From: Candidatus Shapirobacteria bacterium
GTDB lineage: Bacteria > Patescibacteriota > Microgenomatia > 0-14-0-10-38-17
Length of the DNA: 64,000 bases
NCBI GenBank assembly: GCA_018052565.1
Contig: JAGPNC010000001.1
Coordinates: 45,512-109,511, forward strand
Reading direction: 5' to 3'
Position 1 is the stretch's first letter. Each line of letters starts with the position of its first letter. Below are positions 1 to 41,738 of the stretch, one piece after another. The notes below the pieces were generated by a model. The model did no database searches. It worked only from the letters and a program-made list of their open reading frames with translations, and was not told the origin of the DNA. The position numbers and the translations under genes are program-made.

Positions 1-45
1 CAATTTTAACTTTTGACTTTTGACTTTTAACTTTTGATTGTCCAT

Positions 46-1752
46 CTAGTCTCTTACCACTCTCACCACTTCTTCCATCGTGCTCACTCCCTCAACCACT
101 CGTAAATAACCATCTTGCAACATGGTGACCATTCCTTCTTCTATGGCCTGCTTTTCTATTTCGCCAGCCGGTGAACGCTCCAAAATCAGTTTAACAATTT
201 TTTCGCTTACTGACAAGACCTCAAAAATACCAATACGACCGTAATAACCAGTATTATTACATTGTTCGCAGCCTTTTCCCCGAAAAAATCTAATTTCTTC
301 TTTTTTCTTCGGTAAGAACTTACCCAAAACCGCTGTCAACTCATCTAAGGTTGTCTTTTCCGGCTGATATTCTTCACGACAATTAGGACAAATCTTCCGA
401 GCGATCCGCTGGCCAACTACCAGGGAAAGAGAAGAGGCAAGTAGAAACGGTTCGGCGCCAAGATCTAAAAGCCGGGGGATTGTCCCCGCCGCCTGATTGG
501 TATGGAGGGTCGAAAAAACCAAATGGCCGGTTAGCGAAGCCTGAATGGCCAACTCCGTTGTTTCCTGATCCCGAATTTCCCCTACCATAATAATATCCGG
601 ATCTTGTCTTAAGAAGGAACGCATCGCCGAAGCAAAGGTTAGGCCCGCCTCGCGGTTTACCTGCACTTGGCTAATTCCTTTAATCTCATATTCCACCGGA
701 TCCTCGATAGTCATGATATTTACCCCGGGATTATTAATCCTGGTAATAACTGAATAAAGAGTGGTCGTTTTTCCTGAACCGGTAGGACCGCAGACAATAA
801 CGATCCCATTTGGCTTTTGAATTGCTTCCTCAACTCTTCTTAAACCTAATCCCCTTAAGCCCAATTCCGGCAGATCGGGAACGCCGCCGCTCGAGCGTAG
901 AAGTCGCATCACAATTTTCTCTCCCCAAATCGTTGGAGCCGAGGAAACCCGTAAGTCTACCTCAGCGTTTTCTACCTTAAACTTGAAGCGCCCGTCCTGG
1001 GGAACTCTTTTCTCATCAATTTTCATCCCCGATAAAATTTTGATCCGGGAAACCAAGGCCTCATGAATGGTTTTAGGAAGCAAAAGCTTCTCATGCAAAA
1101 CACCATCAATACGATAACGAACCCGTGTATTTTCTGGCTGCGGTTCGATATGGACATCGGAAGCCCGTGAGGAAACCGCAAACTCCAAGACGGTAGAAAC
1201 AACCTTGGCAATAGGGGCTTCTCTAATTACCGTCCCTAGTTGGCGAATATCAATCGCCTGCGCCTTGGGAACCGCCAGCTCTTCTTCCATTGCCTGAGAA
1301 ACTTCCGCTACCAGTGTTCCTCCATAACGCTCTTTAATTGCTCCCCCAATCTCTCCTTCTTCTGCTAAATAGGGGACAACCTCACTGCCCGTTTTTTTCT
1401 CCAAAAACTCAATCGCCTCCAAATCTAAGGGGTTAGCCATCGCCACCGCCAGCTCATTCTTCTGACGGTTAAATCGAAGAGGAATAAGACGATATGTCCT
1501 TGCCACCGCCTCAGAAACCAAAGCGACAGCTTCAGGCGAAATCGGCGTCTCGGCCAAGGAAACGAAAGGAACCCCCAACGCTTTTGCCCGCGCCCGCGCC
1601 AGTTCTTTTTTCTCGACTAAACCCCTTTCCTCAACCACCTTTTCTTCGCTCAAGCCCTTCTCGCTTGCTTCAACAACAATCTCCTCTGCTTGACCCTCGC
1701 TAAGCAAGCCCTCGCCGACCAAAATCTTCAGTAAACCATTTTTAATTGCCAT
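46..1752 (-). CDS. pilB: Type IV pilus assembly / type II secretion ATPase (GspE/PilB family)
   Basis: N-terminal T2SS-E N-domain-like segment; Walker A GPTGSGKTTT; Asp box and His box; C-terminal tetracysteine CPNC...CEQC. Confidence 0.85.
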   Translation of the reverse strand: MAIKNGLLKILVGEGLLSEGQAEEIVVEASEKGLSEEKVVEERGLVEKKELARARAKALGVPFVSLAETPISPEAVALVSEAVARTYRLIPLRFNRQKNELAVAMANPLDLEAIEFLEKKTGSEVVPYLAEEGEIGGAIKERYGGTLVAEVSQAMEEELAVPKAQAIDIRQLGTVIREAPIAKVVSTVLEFAVSSRASDVHIEPQPENTRVRYRIDGVLHEKLLLPKTIHEALVSRIKILSGMKIDEKRVPQDGRFKFKVENAEVDLRVSSAPTIWGEKIVMRLLRSSGGVPDLPELGLRGLGLRRVEEAIQKPNGIVIVCGPTGSGKTTTLYSVITRINNPGVNIMTIEDPVEYEIKGISQVQVNREAGLTFASAMRSFLRQDPDIIMVGEIRDQETTELAIQASLTGHLVFSTLHTNQAAGTIPRLLDLGAEPFLLASSLSLVVGQRIARKICPNCREEYQPEKTTLDELTAVLGKFLPKKKEEIRFFRGKGCEQCNNTGYYGRIGIFEVLSVSEKIVKLILERSPAGEIEKQAIEEGMVTMLQDGYLRVVEGVSTMEEVVRVVRD

Positions 1753-36915: not shown

Positions 36916-37008
36916 GAAAATTCAAAAGTTAAAATTCAAAATTAAAACAGAAACTTTTAACTTTTTACTTGGAATTTTACATTTTCATTTTTGAATTTTG
37001 AATTTTTC
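36916..37008. repeat. Oligo-A/T-tract palindrome upstream of tRNA-Ala
   Basis: AAAATTCAAAAGTTAAAATTCAAAATTAAAAC ... TTTTACATTTTCATTTTTGAATTTTGAATTTTTC. Confidence 0.65.
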
Positions 37009-37052
37009 ATCATACTTAATACCTAATACTTAATACTTGATACTTTTTTTCT

Positions 37053-37129
37053 GGGCCCGTAGCTCAGTTGGCTAGAGCGTCCGCATGGCATGCGGAAGGT
37101 CAGGGGTTCAACTCCCCTCGGGTCCACCA
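37053..37129 (+). tRNA. tRNA-Ala (GGC)
   Basis: Cloverleaf: acceptor GGGCCCG/CGGGTCC with the G3:U70 Ala identity pair. Anticodon loop ATGGCAT. T-arm GGGGTTCAACTCCCC. Encoded CCA. Confidence 0.9.
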
Positions 37130-37317
37130 CATAAAGAAACAAAAGGTATTGCCAAATAGCCTTCCAAACTAGCTGATATCCTCTATAAAAAATGATAAAG
37201 CTAAGGATAGGCAGTAATTACCGACCTCCAATTAACATAATAACTTCGGGGGGCAAACAGGATCTTCCTTCCGTGCTGTTGTTGACGATTTTTATTAAAA
37301 AATTGTAGAATAAGTTT

Positions 37318-38376
37318 ATGAACGATTATAGCGACTACAAAGAAAGAAAATATTTATCTTCTACAGAAGCAGCAAGATATTTAGATATCTCTGTAGGAAT
37401 GTTACATAATTTGGTCAGGGTAAATAAGATTAAATGTTTTATCGCCGGAAGTGGGCAAAAACGCTTTAATCTAAAGAATTTAAAAAAATATGAAACGAGT
37501 AAACCAAATAAAAAAGTAAAAGAGAAAAAAAAAGAAATATTAATAGAAAATATAGTCAACATTAATAATACTACTCAGAAAATCTTTATTAAAAATGCGA
37601 TGGATATGAGTGAACTAAAAGATGACTCTGTCCATTTAATGATTACTTCGCCTCCTTATTTTGACGCAAAAATGTACACCAAAAAACCTATTAAAAATGA
37701 TTTAGGCAATATACATAATCTTGATGAATGGTTTAAAAAAATTGGCATTGTTTGGAAAGAAGTTTTTAGAGTTTTACAACCGGGGAGAAAAGCATTTATA
37801 AATATTATGAATTTGCCTATAAGAGATAATGGCGGTTTTAAATCTCTAAATTTAGTCGGTAGGACAATAGATACAATGGAAAAAATAGGTTTTATTTTCA
37901 AACGAGATATTGTGTGGCACAAAACAAACGGGGTGAGAGCAAATTTCGGGACCTATCCATACCCTGGCGGTATTCTAATAAATAATATGCATGAGTTTGT
38001 TCTGGAATTTAATAAACCAAACAAGAAAGGATTTAATAAATATGGACATTTGACAAAAGAGCAAAAAGAAGCATCCAGGCTCGATAAAGAATTTTGGCTT
38101 TCTATAAAAAACACTGATGTCTGGTTAATGAAGCCGCGAAACAGTGGAGATAGCCGAACCCATGTTGCTCCGTTTCCTTACGAGTTACCATATAGAATCA
38201 TCAAGGCGTTTACTTTTATCGGAGAAGTGGTCTTAGATCCGTTTCTTGGCAGTGGCACCTCGCTAGAAGTAGCCGCAGATTTAAAAAGAAATGGCATAGG
38301 ATATGAAATTGTCCCTGAAATTGCTGAAACTGCAATTAAAAATTTGAATCAACATCAGAATAAACTATTTACTTAA
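37318..38376 (+). CDS. DNA methyltransferase (beta-class N4-C/N6-A, SPPY motif) with N-terminal excisionase-type HTH
   Basis: Motif IV TSPPYFDAK is followed much later by motif I DPFLGSGTSLEVA, the beta-class order. N-terminal residues 14-60 resemble an HTH_17/MerR-like DNA-binding domain. About 30% GC, so AT-rich. Confidence 0.8.
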   Translation: MNDYSDYKERKYLSSTEAARYLDISVGMLHNLVRVNKIKCFIAGSGQKRFNLKNLKKYETSKPNKKVKEKKKEILIENIVNINNTTQKIFIKNAMDMSELKDDSVHLMITSPPYFDAKMYTKKPIKNDLGNIHNLDEWFKKIGIVWKEVFRVLQPGRKAFINIMNLPIRDNGGFKSLNLVGRTIDTMEKIGFIFKRDIVWHKTNGVRANFGTYPYPGGILINNMHEFVLEFNKPNKKGFNKYGHLTKEQKEASRLDKEFWLSIKNTDVWLMKPRNSGDSRTHVAPFPYELPYRIIKAFTFIGEVVLDPFLGSGTSLEVAADLKRNGIGYEIVPEIAETAIKNLNQHQNKLFT

Positions 38377-38390
38377 TTAATAATAAAAAT

Positions 38391-39515
38391 ATGGTAATCG
38401 ATGCAAAAACAATATATGCCCAATCGAGTGATATTAAATCTAGAACATATCTAGAGTATCGCAAAGATATGAAACAAAAAGCTATTGCTGAGTTAGAAGT
38501 TTTACCGTGGCTTAAGAAAAAAATTCGCCAAAAGGATAAAAAAGCCGTTGTTGAAAAATTCGGAGGCGATAAGTTTATTTGGTTTTTAAGAAAAGGGGGA
38601 ATTACGAGAGAACCAGATTTTGTGGCAAAATATTCAAATAAGGAAACTAAATACGTTGAATTTCAATACGCAAAAAAAGAATTAAGCGCTTATGATTTTA
38701 AGATTTCTAAAATTGCTCCAAAAAACAGAACACTAAACAAGAGGGCCCCTAAAGACGATACAGAAATTTTATATGTCGTTAAGCCAACCTATGAGTTCGC
38801 AATTTTAAGTCCTGACTGGATAATTAAGAATTCAAAACAAGCTATTGCTTCTGCTTGGGGTAATGCTCCGGTATTCAGGGTACCAAAAGAAAAATTTAAA
38901 AAAGTTTTACAGAAAGATAAAGAATTGAAAGCTGTTTGTGACTTTATAGATAAAAAAATTTCGATCTTGGATTTCCAACATAAAACCATTGAAATGGAAG
39001 AGAACAAGCTTTCTTATCTTTTGCAACAAGTTATAGATGAAGAGAAAATCCTAAAAATAATTCCAAAAACCATAGATGGATTTTTTAAAGTTTGCTTTAT
39101 GCTCGACCACATCGAAAAGATTCCAACTAATGCAAATTTGTGGCTAGTATATATTTTATCCTTTTTAGACCAAAGTTTAAATTCTTATGAACTCTTTCGG
39201 TTAATTTATAGCTTAGATTTTCTTTATCAAAAAGTTGAATTAAAAACAAATGAACTTAGCAGATTAGTAAGGGGATTAAAAGAAATTAATAAGCAAGTTG
39301 AACGATTTTCAAATCCCGATGGTTCTTTTCGGTCAGATAAAACCATCGCTCCTCTGGAAGATACAAGATATTCACTTTTCATAATAAATATCCTTGAAGA
39401 TTTGACCCAAGATGTTCTGTATTACTATGGGAACAATATCAACCTAAGACCTATCACTAGGATATACCAAACCGTTCCGCAAATAAATAAAACTTTTCAA
39501 TTCGTCATGCAATAA
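38391..39515 (+). CDS. Uncharacterised protein, candidate restriction endonuclease partner of the upstream methyltransferase
   Basis: Starts 14 bp after the MTase stop on the same strand, with the same AT-rich composition. Possible PD-x9-ETK (PD-(D/E)xK-like) segment REPDFVAKYSNKETKYVEF. No other recognisable domain. Confidence 0.35.
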   Translation: MVIDAKTIYAQSSDIKSRTYLEYRKDMKQKAIAELEVLPWLKKKIRQKDKKAVVEKFGGDKFIWFLRKGGITREPDFVAKYSNKETKYVEFQYAKKELSAYDFKISKIAPKNRTLNKRAPKDDTEILYVVKPTYEFAILSPDWIIKNSKQAIASAWGNAPVFRVPKEKFKKVLQKDKELKAVCDFIDKKISILDFQHKTIEMEENKLSYLLQQVIDEEKILKIIPKTIDGFFKVCFMLDHIEKIPTNANLWLVYILSFLDQSLNSYELFRLIYSLDFLYQKVELKTNELSRLVRGLKEINKQVERFSNPDGSFRSDKTIAPLEDTRYSLFIINILEDLTQDVLYYYGNNINLRPITRIYQTVPQINKTFQFVMQ

Positions 39516-39659
39516 ATTCGCCAAGAGGGGAAAGATATCGAGAAAATTATAAAAGAGAATAGTCATAAAATAAAATAGACCCAAGCTTAGCGTTTTAACA
39601 TCGATTCGACAAGTTCTGTAATTTTTTATCCTTAATACAATGCAAACATCACTAAGCTC

Positions 39660-41738
39660 ATGCCAAAAAAAATTACCAAAATAAACCAAAAATTTTCTTT
39701 AATTATTAACATCTCTTTTTTCCTTCTTTTCTTCTTTGTCCCACTTTTCTTCATCCCTCTAAATTCCGAAATTTTTGAAATTAATAAGATGCTCCTGAGC
39801 TTCGCCTTGGGGGCCACTATTTTTTGGGCTTGGACCAGCAAGGCCCTTTTGGGGGAAAACAAAAATTTTGAAAAAACACCTCTTTTCTTACCATTGCTTT
39901 CCTTTTGGCTTTCCCAACTCTTGGCCACCGTTTTCTCAATTCACCCCCGCACTTCCCTTCTCGGCTATTATACTCGCCTTAACGGCGGGCTTTTATCTCT
40001 CACTCTTTATCTTTTCCTTTATTTTGCCTTTGTCAACAATAGTGACGATGAGAAGACAAAAAGACTTTTTCTTCGAGCAAACCTCGGCGCCCTCTTTCTT
40101 GTTTGCTCCTATGGTATTCTGCAACACTTCGGTATTGATGACCAATTTTGGGCACAGGATGTCAAGCGCCGTGTTTTTTCAACCTTAGGCCAACCGAACT
40201 GGTTGGCCGCTTGGATTGACGCCTTAATCTTTCTCCCTCTTTTTTTTGCCTCAAACAAAAGTTTTTCCAAAAATAAACGCCTAAAGGCAAGCCTTCTTTT
40301 TATTATCAGCTTTATTTGCCTTCTTTTTACCCGCTCTCGTTCTGGTCTTCTATCTTTCTTGTTCATTTACCTTCCTTTTTGGCTTATTTTCTCATGGCTT
40401 AAGCCAAGACAGGAAAGAAAAGAACTCCTTCTTCCTTTTCTTCTCTTTAGTCTCTGTATTACCTTTTTAATCTTGATTATCGAACCGACATTAATAAAAG
40501 AAACCTTTTCGCCTTTCTTCCCTGCCACGGTTTCTTCTCCTCCTGAAAAAATCCCTTCAGTTGAGCAAGGAGGGAGCCCCTCAGAAGAAATTCGTAAAGT
40601 CGTTTGGCGAGGAGCGATAGAACTGGGGAAAAAATATCCCCTTTTAGGAACGGGGCCAGAAACCTTTGCCTGCTCTTATTATTGGGTAAGGCCCAAAGAG
40701 CATAACCTTTTATCAGAGTGGGATTTTCTCTATAATAAAGCCCATAACGAATATCTTAATTTTTTCGCCACGAGCGGCTGGTTTGGTCTCCTTACCTACC
40801 TGGGGTTCATCATCGCCTTCGTGATTATTTATTTTCAAAAAATTAGCCAACAGAAGAAGAACTTTTCTCAAAACGAAAATTTATTTTTAACCCTCGCTCT
40901 TTTTTGCGGCTTTTTAACAATTCTCATCACTAATTTCTTTGGTTTTTCTGTCGTTACCATAAACCTCCTTTTTTATCTCATCCCCGCCTTTATCTTCTCT
41001 CTTTTTAAAAAAAACCAAAATACCAACCAAAATAACTTATCAAAAACAAAAGATAATTTTGAGCCCAAAGCGCTCTTTTTTCTCCTTATTATTCCTCTTC
41101 TCTTTTCCTATTTTTTAATTATTAATTATTGGCTGGCAGATTACCATTTCGCTAAGGCAGAAAAATACGCTAACCAGCGCCAATATCTTTTGGCCAAAAA
41201 GGAATATGACCGCGCAAGGGGGAAAAACCCCCATGAGCCTCTTTACCAAAGTAATGCCGCTATAAATGCTGCTTATCTTACCGTAATTTCTAAAGAACAG
41301 GGGGAAGAAAAATTAGCTCAACAATTTGCCCAAGAAGCCCTAAGTCTAAGCCAAAAAGCAATCAAAAATAATCCTTACCACCTAAATTTTTATCGCCAAA
41401 GCGCCCAAACCCTCTTTCTATTAAGCCAAATTAATCCTCAATATCTTTCTCCCTTGGAAAAGGTTTTGCTTACCGCTCAAAAGCTTGCCCCCACTGACCC
41501 TAAACTTACTTATAACCTAGGAGTTTTAGCCTCAAGGGAAGGAAAATCCCAGGAAGCCATCAGCTGGCTGAAAAAAACAATCGAACTTAAACCAAACTAT
41601 GAAGCCGCTAGGCTCTCTTTGGCAAAAATTTATCAAGAAACAGGCGAAGAAAAAAGAGCTAAAGAGCAATTAGAATATTTGCTAGAATTTATTAATCCTA
41701 AAGATGAGGAGGCCCAAAAATTGCTTCAAGAGTTATAA
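39660..41738 (+). CDS. O-antigen ligase (Wzy_C)-like polytopic membrane protein with C-terminal TPR repeats
   Basis: At least 10 TM segments. Wzy_C-like loop GTGPETFACSYY...YNKAHNEYLNFFATSGWFG. C-terminal TPR-like helices. Confidence 0.6.
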   Translation: MPKKITKINQKFSLIINISFFLLFFFVPLFFIPLNSEIFEINKMLLSFALGATIFWAWTSKALLGENKNFEKTPLFLPLLSFWLSQLLATVFSIHPRTSLLGYYTRLNGGLLSLTLYLFLYFAFVNNSDDEKTKRLFLRANLGALFLVCSYGILQHFGIDDQFWAQDVKRRVFSTLGQPNWLAAWIDALIFLPLFFASNKSFSKNKRLKASLLFIISFICLLFTRSRSGLLSFLFIYLPFWLIFSWLKPRQERKELLLPFLLFSLCITFLILIIEPTLIKETFSPFFPATVSSPPEKIPSVEQGGSPSEEIRKVVWRGAIELGKKYPLLGTGPETFACSYYWVRPKEHNLLSEWDFLYNKAHNEYLNFFATSGWFGLLTYLGFIIAFVIIYFQKISQQKKNFSQNENLFLTLALFCGFLTILITNFFGFSVVTINLLFYLIPAFIFSLFKKNQNTNQNNLSKTKDNFEPKALFFLLIIPLLFSYFLIINYWLADYHFAKAEKYANQRQYLLAKKEYDRARGKNPHEPLYQSNAAINAAYLTVISKEQGEEKLAQQFAQEALSLSQKAIKNNPYHLNFYRQSAQTLFLLSQINPQYLSPLEKVLLTAQKLAPTDPKLTYNLGVLASREGKSQEAISWLKKTIELKPNYEAARLSLAKIYQETGEEKRAKEQLEYLLEFINPKDEEAQKLLQEL

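Follow-up and report, generated by a model that had tools for sequence, protein, structure and literature searches.

The closest described counterparts of the locus analysed here are the classical Type II (IIP-like) restriction-modification (R-M) systems with a beta-class N4-cytosine methyltransferase (MTase), such as PvuII and BamHI. These are compact, AT-rich, horizontally mobile modules in which the MTase and the endonuclease are encoded by two separate, adjacent genes, the MTase carries an SPPY motif IV and an FxGxG motif I, the endonuclease has a PD-(D/E)xK fold, and a C gene accompanies the pair. A second set of relevant systems, of the SsoII, Ecl18kI, MspI and EcoRII type, is known for MTases that autoregulate through an N-terminal helix-turn-helix (HTH) (PMC2760811, PMC3978073). 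The HTH of the SsoII/Ecl18kI-type systems is fused to a C5-cytosine MTase, their R and M promoters are divergent or convergent, and a long palindromic operator lies in the intergenic region.

The 64,000-nucleotide stretch of Candidatus Shapirobacteria DNA that we analysed (the window) contains two co-directional open reading frames between a tRNA-Ala gene and a Wzy_C/TPR gene (Table 1). The original prediction had described them as a candidate novel R-M or defence pair. The architecture turns out to be that of a classical Type II R-M system, with separate and adjacent M and R genes, motif I (SAM binding) and motif IV (catalysis) in the first product, and a predicted nuclease fold with a conserved catalytic constellation in the second; the novelty lies in the family of the putative endonuclease, which is new and unannotated. 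Drawing on domain content, predicted fold, conserved residues, near-obligate linkage, spread over phyla and the insertion itself, we propose, with a probability of roughly 0.82, that the pair is a self-contained, acquired Type II R-M module that works as follows. The MTase would methylate a specific sequence in the host chromosome, probably yielding N4-methylcytosine, and the 374-aa protein would be a Mg2+-dependent PD-(D/E)xK endonuclease that cuts this sequence where the methylation is missing, for instance in phage or plasmid DNA entering the cell. A single promoter immediately before the MTase ATG probably drives both genes, so that the MTase would be produced ahead of the nuclease or simultaneously with it, and this promoter may in turn be subject to feedback by the MTase's N-terminal HTH.

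Table 1. Features of the M-R module and its borders (nucleotide positions in the window; residues in the respective protein).
Feature	Position (nt)	Residues (aa)	Strand	Remarks
tRNA-Ala(ggc)	37053-37129		+	ARAGORN; left edge of the insertion, 3' end toward the module
Left spacer, 188 nt	37130-37317		+	Holds the top-scoring sigma-70-like promoter of the region
Sigma-70-like promoter	TTGACG 37282-37287; 18 nt; TAGAAT 37306-37311			Promoter scan, 10/12 matches; ends 6 nt before the ATG
DNA methyltransferase, 352 aa	37318-38376		+	Matches in Pfam, NCBIfam and PADLOC
HTH_17 domain of the MTase	37351-37494	12-59		E 1.4e-5, 25.7 bits, just below the 27-bit cut-off
Beta-class N6_N4 MTase domain, PF01555	37630-38337	105-340		E 7.6e-41
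Motif IV SPPY of the MTase	37648-37659	111-114
Motif I FLGSGTS of the MTase	38242-38262	309-315
Putative Type II restriction endonuclease, 374 aa	38391-39515		+	Start lies 14 nt beyond the stop codon of the MTase
N-terminal PD-(D/E)xK domain (predicted)	38448-38915	~20-175
Invariant residues of the 374-aa protein	38490; 38616; 38658; 38664; 38694; 38700; 38709	E34; D76; E90; Q92; D102; K104; K107
All-helical C-terminal domain	38922-39512	178-374
Right spacer, 144 nt	39516-39659		+	Precedes the native Wzy_C/TPR gene
Wzy_C/TPR gene, native	39660-41738			Downstream of the module

The drop in GC content that had been reported right after the tRNA gene is pronounced: the two ORFs contain 31.4% GC compared to 41.5% in the remainder of the window, and they constitute the minimum among 2.2-kb stretches of the 64 kb (z = -3.8; such a low value occurs in 0.16% of sliding windows). 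A close relative of the host, L089, provides the empty site. Its tRNA-Ala (positions 146-220) is identical, and 134 nt separate it from the same downstream gene, compared to 2,530 nt in the window. Because this site is empty, the M-R pair is horizontally acquired, as had been proposed, and the inserted foreign DNA amounts to about 2.4 kb. The genes that flank the pair in the window are absent from every other module locus, and the island is not one that related genomes share in synteny and with matching GC. DNA similarity to other module copies extends over exactly the two ORFs (37325-39518, with the right-hand end at 39502-39518), and the right spacer from about 39561 onwards aligns collinearly, although weakly, with the native spacer of L089. 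No integrase gene is present between the tRNA-Ala and the next native gene, and direct repeats (att) between the left and right spacers are not significant, as a score this high arises in 650 of 1000 shuffles. The segment 37288-37313 is similar to positions 302-327 of L089, promoter-like native sequence at the empty site (22/26 positions identical, a score reached by 2/1000 shuffles), a likeness that is at most suggestive of a capture or duplication of native promoter text. A tRNA gene lies within about 1.1 kb of the module in 10 other loci, and in all 11 tRNA-near sites, the window included, the tRNA 3' end faces the module. Besides the M-R pair, no defence genes accompany the insertion in the window.

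The order of motifs in the 352-aa protein, with motif IV N-terminal to motif I, is that of the beta class, in agreement with the original prediction, and the PADLOC MTase_II profile matches it at 1.8e-56. SPPY is invariant in the partner MTases of the family (85/85), in which the FxGxG motif I is also conserved. The association of SPPY and DPPY motifs with the target base has been treated previously (PMC10406627), and because motif IV is SPPY and not DPPY, the enzyme is probably N4-cytosine specific. The predicted HTH fusion at the N-terminus was likewise recovered as an HTH_17 domain that falls just under the bit-score cut-off; the TIGR01764 excisionase profile gave a score of 0.011, and most partner MTases possess an HTH_17 domain. 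This fusion sets the window MTase apart from PvuII- and BamHI-type enzymes. It is shared with the SsoII/Ecl18kI-type systems, also of Type II, whose enzymes are, however, C5-cytosine MTases, whereas that of the window is an amino-MTase of the beta class whose HTH_17 is excisionase/MerR-like. The nearest solved relative of the catalytic domain, and the best PDB match (E 1.1e-35, aa 97-340), is TTHA0409 of Thermus thermophilus HB8 (PDB 2zie), a putative DNA methylase that is, like the window enzyme, of the beta class, and is dimeric. The match is limited to the catalytic domain (chain residues 33-274 of TTHA0409), and the HTH region of the window MTase lies outside it. The papers citing TTHA0409 give no target sequence and so do not help in predicting that of the window MTase, and the names of MTases in public sources are generic, without specificity. 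A search for palindrome avoidance in the window plus about 540 kb of DNA flanking the module in 66 host loci, performed with no control set, yielded no single candidate recognition site: GATC, GGCC, ACGT, CTAG and GTAC were all depleted. Depletion of such palindromes is seen in many prokaryotes.

The 374-aa ORF had been described as starting after a 14-nt gap and as belonging to no recognisable family, and both points held. Searches of Pfam, NCBIfam, PADLOC and PHROGs at E<=0.01 gave no match, nor did PDB sequences at E<=10; 18 members of its family matched nothing in Pfam at E<=10, and phmmer and family-profile searches of the PDB established no link to a known nuclease. No confident homology to a non-nuclease family emerged either. 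In contrast to PvuII- and BamHI-type endonucleases, the protein thus shows no detectable sequence similarity to described restriction endonuclease families. The nuclease assignment rests on a predicted structure and moderately strong fold similarity; a Foldseek search of the PDB returned nothing below E 0.18. The predicted N-terminal domain contains the alpha-beta-beta-beta-alpha-beta core of PD-(D/E)xK enzymes (DSSP: helix 20-48, strands 53-56, 77-80, 86-94, and so on), and its structural matches are Hjc, RecU, D212, VRR_NUC and a PD(D/E)XK endonuclease domain protein. Hjc (an archaeal Holliday-junction resolvase), RecU and D212 are minimal PD-(D/E)xK nucleases and the top matches; they share with the 374-aa protein the order of a glutamate in helix 1, an aspartate in strand 2 and a glutamate in strand 3. 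Sequence identity to them is 10-14%, with no profile-level relationship. Unlike them, the 374-aa protein is linked to an MTase, has a further domain at its C-terminus and a conserved tail at its N-terminus, and carries glutamine instead of lysine at the third motif position.

E34, D76 and the E90-x-Q92 pair occupy the canonical positions in helix 1, at the beginning of strand 2 and in strand 3, respectively. D76 and E90 of the D...(D/E)-x-K signature are invariant, and the third position is Q92 rather than the lysine of the E-x-K found in PvuII/BamHI-type enzymes; two invariant lysines, K104 and K107, are found one strand or helix beyond it. E-x-Q variants occur in active enzymes, for example BglII. 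The proposed active site would be composed of E34, D76 and E90-x-Q92, with D102-x-K104 and K107 nearby. The PD-x9-E-T-K segment that had been put forward earlier survives in part: P75-D76 is (nearly) invariant, whereas E85, T86 and K87 vary among homologues in a 42-sequence alignment, and E85-T-K87 was therefore given up as the active-site motif for D76 and E90-x-Q92 (with D102-x-K104 and K107).

The second half of the protein, a helical domain of about 200 residues that has no equivalent in PvuII/BamHI-type systems, is strongly conserved and contains the invariant residues W251, Y254, D276, Y279, E336-D337 and Q340-D341. Short relatives that lack this domain occur and are paired, as in locus L096, with a 70%-identical MTase. 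It is conceivable, though in our judgement unlikely, that in the long form the C-terminal domain gates cleavage in a regulatory or sensing role, or that the family recognises a sequence beyond those of characterised enzymes. Gating could proceed via long-range communication between sites, interaction with the MTase or activation triggered by phage. If true, either possibility would bring something new, be it a mechanistic sub-type or a specificity. The absence of an assigned role for this large domain, together with Gln92 in place of the canonical lysine and the lack of any family or nuclease HMM match, could also be taken to mean that the 374-aa protein is catalytically inactive and serves in DNA binding, regulation or scaffolding, the MTase then being in effect an orphan with an epigenetic role. 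We consider this very improbable, as E34, D76, E90, D102, K104 and K107 do not vary across bacteria and archaea, even in relatives that are only 20-27% identical, and as R-M modules, unlike regulators, typically show low GC and a patchy distribution.

The genomic surroundings of the family bear on its function. An N6_N4 MTase gene is located immediately upstream and on the same strand in 78 of 80 genome loci, usually at a distance of 6-30 nt, and in the two remaining loci the contig ends less than 100 nt before the nuclease gene; the co-occurrence anticipated for the pair is hence borne out. The upstream MTase is 58-88% identical to the window enzyme in 77/78 loci, and only 26% identical in one (L053). 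Two distant relatives that consist of the nuclease domain alone also lie beside DNA MTases, in other arrangements: P0221 adjoins a C5 methylase and an HhH-GPD glycosylase, and P0223 lies in convergent orientation to an MTase that shares 70% identity with the window enzyme. A 203-aa ORF without a Pfam match lies between M and R in L003, and a 376-aa ORF in the same position in L024, considered as a nuclease paralogue, was found to be a TPR protein. Strict linkage to MTases, in the 78 loci and in the two other arrangements, would have no reason if the 374-aa protein, instead of restricting DNA at specific sequences, were a structure-specific or repair nuclease (a resolvase like Hjc or RecU, or an enzyme that processes damage) carried along with the MTase. 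Its top matches do include resolvases, but the Hjc core is the minimal PD-(D/E)xK fold and is to be expected as the top match of any small member, and locus L092 already has a separate HhH-GPD glycosylase in a repair role beside its C5 MTase; a repair function is extremely unlikely. Considering (i) the PD-(D/E)xK fold, (ii) the conserved residues, and (iii) the linkage to MTases, it is very probable that the 374-aa protein represents an unannotated family of Type II restriction endonucleases, in line with the possibility raised originally.

The MTase-nuclease pair is found in bacterial and archaeal loci of more than 20 phyla, with 52-82% identity between bacterial and archaeal modules, and GC content is lower in the module than in its flanks in 65 of 70 loci. 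Along with the absence of the window's flanking genes from the other loci and the neighbours seen elsewhere, this indicates that the module is horizontally mobile. The family comprises about 600 sequence clusters, which carry the label 'hypothetical' and go undetected in Pfam, NCBIfam and PADLOC; the more than 20 phyla they come from are mostly uncultured. OZ251471 and OZ241921 are examples of complete genomes with the module. A tblastn search of the annotated records of 72,556 plasmids and 50,697 phages produced no match. A unit that is bounded exactly by two ORFs, has spread over many phyla, arrived in the window with no further defence genes and shed there the C-protein regulator of its nearest relatives might be mainly a selfish addiction module that persists by post-segregational killing and is not an effective phage defence of its host. 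Such a role is compatible with defence and does not exclude it, and elsewhere the pair has ThsB-TIR, SIR2-STAND and DarT defence genes, as well as transposases and recombinases, as neighbours; as an alternative to the defensive R-M module, we regard it as improbable.

As the sigma-70-like promoter ends 6 nt before the MTase ATG, the M-R transcript is predicted to be leaderless or nearly so. The window contains no C gene (an XRE/HTH_3 controller), nor a remnant detectable by tblastn, whereas PvuII, BamHI and the closest relatives of the module (L001, L010, L011, L014 and L098; XRE-type) carry one. Judged by sequence, the window copy has lost the C-protein regulator that its nearest relatives kept. 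The promoter-like site directly before the MTase start recalls the SsoII/Ecl18kI-type arrangement, in that a bound MTase could occlude RNA polymerase there. However, the genes are co-directional, M to R, and 14 nt apart, and the upstream regions of 67 HTH-bearing loci share no conserved palindrome or other inverted repeat and no k-mer beyond AT-rich noise. A palindrome considered as an operator, AAATACAATTGT..., was rejected, for it sits within the stretch that encodes the C protein in four related loci. Of the SsoII-type autorepression envisaged originally, the N-terminal HTH fusion stands and the operator was not found, which makes the comparison an analogy only.

Type II restriction enzymes evolve fast, and many of them escape homology searches. 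When a nuclease is not recognised, annotation pipelines would score its partner MTase as an orphan. In surveys of CPR genomes, MTases are reported to outnumber restriction enzymes by far (bioRxiv 10.64898/2026.07.13.738296), and part of this excess may correspond to undetected nucleases. The window pair leaves the general understanding of R-M systems unchanged; an HMM built from its nuclease family would, however, improve the annotation of defence systems, and the family is a candidate source of new enzyme specificity. For the organism, the comparison with the empty site documents a minimal two-ORF R-M cassette acquired beside a tRNA in a reduced CPR genome, in which the loss of the C-protein regulator represents a small natural experiment in R-M regulation.

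The original prediction of a two-gene, low-GC stretch after tRNA-Ala was confirmed by ARAGORN, by the ORF coordinates (see the table) and by base composition: the GC content of the two ORFs is 31.4% against 41.5% in the remaining window, and the stretch has the lowest GC of any 2.2-kb sliding window across the 64 kb (z = −3.8). Database entries with 100% identity derive from a Candidatus Shapirobacteria MAG (CPR/Patescibacteria). Between mreB and the tRNA gene (36917–37042) lie AT-rich inverted repeats with 31-nt arms that are 81% complementary, as well as tandem TACTTAATAC-like repeats; as similar text precedes tRNA-Ala in an empty-site relative, these repeats are native and lie outside the island.

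Features of the module in the window and near its copies in other genomes (L numbers denote contigs or loci in other genomes).
Feature	Location	Position	Strand and remarks
tRNA-Ala(ggc)	window	37053–37129	+; ARAGORN
Spacer	window	between tRNA-Ala and first ORF	188 nt
First ORF, MTase, 352 aa	window	37318–38376	+; co-directional with second ORF
Second ORF, 374 aa	window	38391–39515	+; 14 nt after first ORF
ThsB-TIR near module	L001	7530–8021	
SIR2 + STAND NTPase fusion near module	L005	6157–8649	
DarT near module	L006	9323–9754	
Controller-like (C) gene	L001	4721–4939	
Controller-like (C) gene	L098	1–132	
Controller-like (C) gene	L010		
Controller-like (C) gene	L011		
Controller-like (C) gene	L014		

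The first ORF encodes a beta-class MTase fused to an N-terminal HTH, as had been proposed. Its residues 105–340 match PF01555 N6_N4_Mtase (Pfam, E = 7.6e-41), and PADLOC Type II MTase models are matched at 1.8e-56; the N-terminus carries HTH_17 (aa 12–59, E = 1.4e-5, slightly below the gathering score) and also matches the excisionase domain TIGR01764 (0.011). The SPPY motif (aa 111–114) precedes FLGSGTS (aa 309–315), which is the beta-class order, and the nearest solved structure is that of the putative methylase TTHA0409 (2zie, 1.1e-35). SPPY is unchanged in 85/85 recovered partner MTases. Because SPPY marks N4-cytosine and DPPY N6-adenine enzymes of the beta class (PMC10406627; PMC7544214), the product of the MTase, judged from this motif alone, would be m4C.

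The 374-aa partner has no match in Pfam, NCBIfam, PADLOC or PHROGs and none among PDB sequences, by single sequence or by profile, and nothing emerged when 18 family members were run against Pfam at a permissive threshold. Its 593 homologues (90% clustering), which are 52–82% identical along their entire length, occur in CPR, WOR-3, Zixibacteria, Bdellovibrionales, Altiarchaeales and Parvarchaeota, and every named one is ‘hypothetical’. Only 155 clusters came out when 1.84 billion representatives were searched exhaustively with a profile, and tblastn of plasmid and phage records (72,556 plasmids, 50,697 phages) found no homologue.

A 42-sequence alignment gave a confident AlphaFold2 model of this protein (pLDDT 85.8, pTM 0.85), which displays a long helix (aa 20–48), a β-sheet core that extends to about aa 175 and an all-helical domain (aa 178–374). 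R18, E34, W40, D76, E90, Q92, D102, K104 and K107 are invariant in an alignment that includes relatives with 20–27% identity. On the model, E34 maps to helix 1, D76 to the beginning of strand 2 and E90-x-Q92 to strand 3. The order is the canonical one, E / D / (D/E)xK, except that Lys is replaced by Gln, a variant that also occurs in active enzymes, BglII among them. Of the PD-x9-E-T-K segment proposed earlier, the aspartate (D76) is invariant, and E85-T-K87 was rejected as the motif since its positions vary among homologues. The first 26 residues (window 38391–38471 encodes aa 1–27) are strongly conserved (D4, Y9-A-Q-S12, I15, R18, L21, Y23, R24) although the model shows them as disordered (pLDDT below 50). 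M27, which is invariant, is the first residue of several database entries, a pattern that suggests a functional N-terminal arm or an alternative start.

The co-occurrence of MTase and partner holds in other genomes. An exact-protein look-up placed an HTH_17-N6_N4 MTase immediately 5′ of the putative nuclease gene in five independent contexts, and when 185,579 species-representative genomes were scanned, 80 loci turned up, spread over more than 20 phyla of bacteria and archaea. An N6_N4 MTase lies directly upstream on the same strand in 78/80 loci (tblastn), usually 6–30 nt away, and 77 of these 78 enzymes are 58–88% identical to that of the window; in the remaining two loci, the contig starts less than 100 nt before the nuclease gene. 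One sub-clade of the linked MTases has no HTH, and an Altiarchaeal variant combines an MTase without HTH with an extra 203-aa ORF. In the 78th of these loci, on a Dehalococcoidales contig (L053:1352–1789), the upstream MTase-like match is partial and only 26% identical, and this partner may be different or decayed. In two lineages, an unrelated gene separates M from R: in L024:4858–5988 and L023 it encodes a 376-aa TPR protein, and in L003:3744–4355 it is an ORF of 203 aa that has no match in Pfam.

Distant relatives (214–274 aa) comprise the nuclease domain only. Those of 214–230 aa are convergent to other MTases. One of them, P0221 (L092:4001–6437, L093), is convergent to a C5 DNA methylase and an HhH-GPD glycosylase in an element that carries a phage integrase and a 709-aa ResIII-like protein; another, P0223 (L096:177–1863), is convergent to an HTH_17-N6_N4 MTase with 70% identity to the window enzyme over its whole length. 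Three different MTase arrangements thus accompany one nuclease domain, as expected for the catalytic domain of a restriction endonuclease and hard to reconcile with the 374-aa protein being a resolvase or a regulator. We consider the locus to be a Type II R-M module, with a probability of roughly four in five; the original reading as an R-M or defence pair is supported overall, its one wrong motif aside.

The module is compact and horizontally acquired, and the proposed acquisition of a tRNA-adjacent island is borne out by an empty site, low GC and flanks that are not shared. The decisive result is the empty site in metagenome contig L089, in which the Wzy_C/TPR gene (79% protein identity to that of the window) starts 134 nt after an identical tRNA-Ala(ggc); in the window, the two are 2,530 nt apart. 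DNA similarity to the nearest module copies (75–79%) is confined to 37325–39518, i.e. the two ORFs. The GC content of the module is below that of its flanks in 65/70 loci (median difference −7.7 points), including hosts with about 60% GC, and the flanking genes of the window (mreB, mreC, the Wzy_C/TPR gene, def) are absent from every other locus with the module. In other genomes the module has ThsB-TIR, SIR2-STAND, DarT, transposases and a recombinase among its neighbours, and the first three indicate that it often lands in defence islands. Neither an integrase nor a significant flanking repeat was found at the window module. A tRNA lies within ~1.1 kb of the module in 10 of roughly 70 other loci scanned and, with the window counted, its 3′ end faces the module in 11/11 such sites (rough estimates, P ~0.004 for enrichment and ~0.0005 for orientation), so tRNA 3′ ends look like recurrent landing sites.

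A different restriction gene occupies the same neighbourhood in a more distant Candidatus Shapirobacteria CG09 contig (PEZH01000009.1; L091:1–323), where the orthologue of window gene 39660–41738 is closely preceded by a PF09568 RE_MjaI restriction-enzyme gene and clpP. Avoidance analysis aimed at the recognition sequence of the module picked up no more than the usual depletion of GATC, GGCC, ACGT, CTAG and GTAC. In host DNA (1–37129 and 39560–64000), several 4-bp palindromes are strongly under-represented, with observed/Markov expectation ratios of 0.53 for TGCA, 0.54 for CTAG, 0.56 for ACGT, 0.62 for GTAC and 0.69 for GGCC, a sign that other restriction systems may exert pressure.

Of the sigma-70-like sites in the region, the best is TTGACG-18-TAGAAT (37282–37311); only 6 nt separate its end from the ATG of the MTase downstream, which predicts a transcript that is leaderless or nearly so. 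No terminator-like site was found between the two genes. Positions 37288–37313 are identical in 22/26 nucleotides to promoter-like text before the native gene at the empty site, a score reached by 2/1000 shuffles; host-derived sequence may thus drive the module, although this is suggestive only. The HTH of the MTase could act in autoregulation by analogy with SsoII/Ecl18kI (PMC2760811); those systems, however, have C5 MTases, and in them a long palindromic operator lies between genes that each have their own promoter, and no conserved palindrome was found upstream of 67 HTH-bearing MTases. In the closest module relatives, a 72-aa XRE/HTH_3 controller-like gene ends a few nucleotides before the MTase ATG, so that their MTase is accompanied by a separate C-like protein in addition to the HTH fused to it; the C gene is wholly absent from the window copy, with no remnant.

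The Type II R-M reading is not conceptually surprising. The nuclease family is widespread and is missed by current annotation and defence-finding libraries; it is of use for annotation, possibly represents a new specificity, and bears on the apparent ‘orphan’ MTases of CPR genomes.
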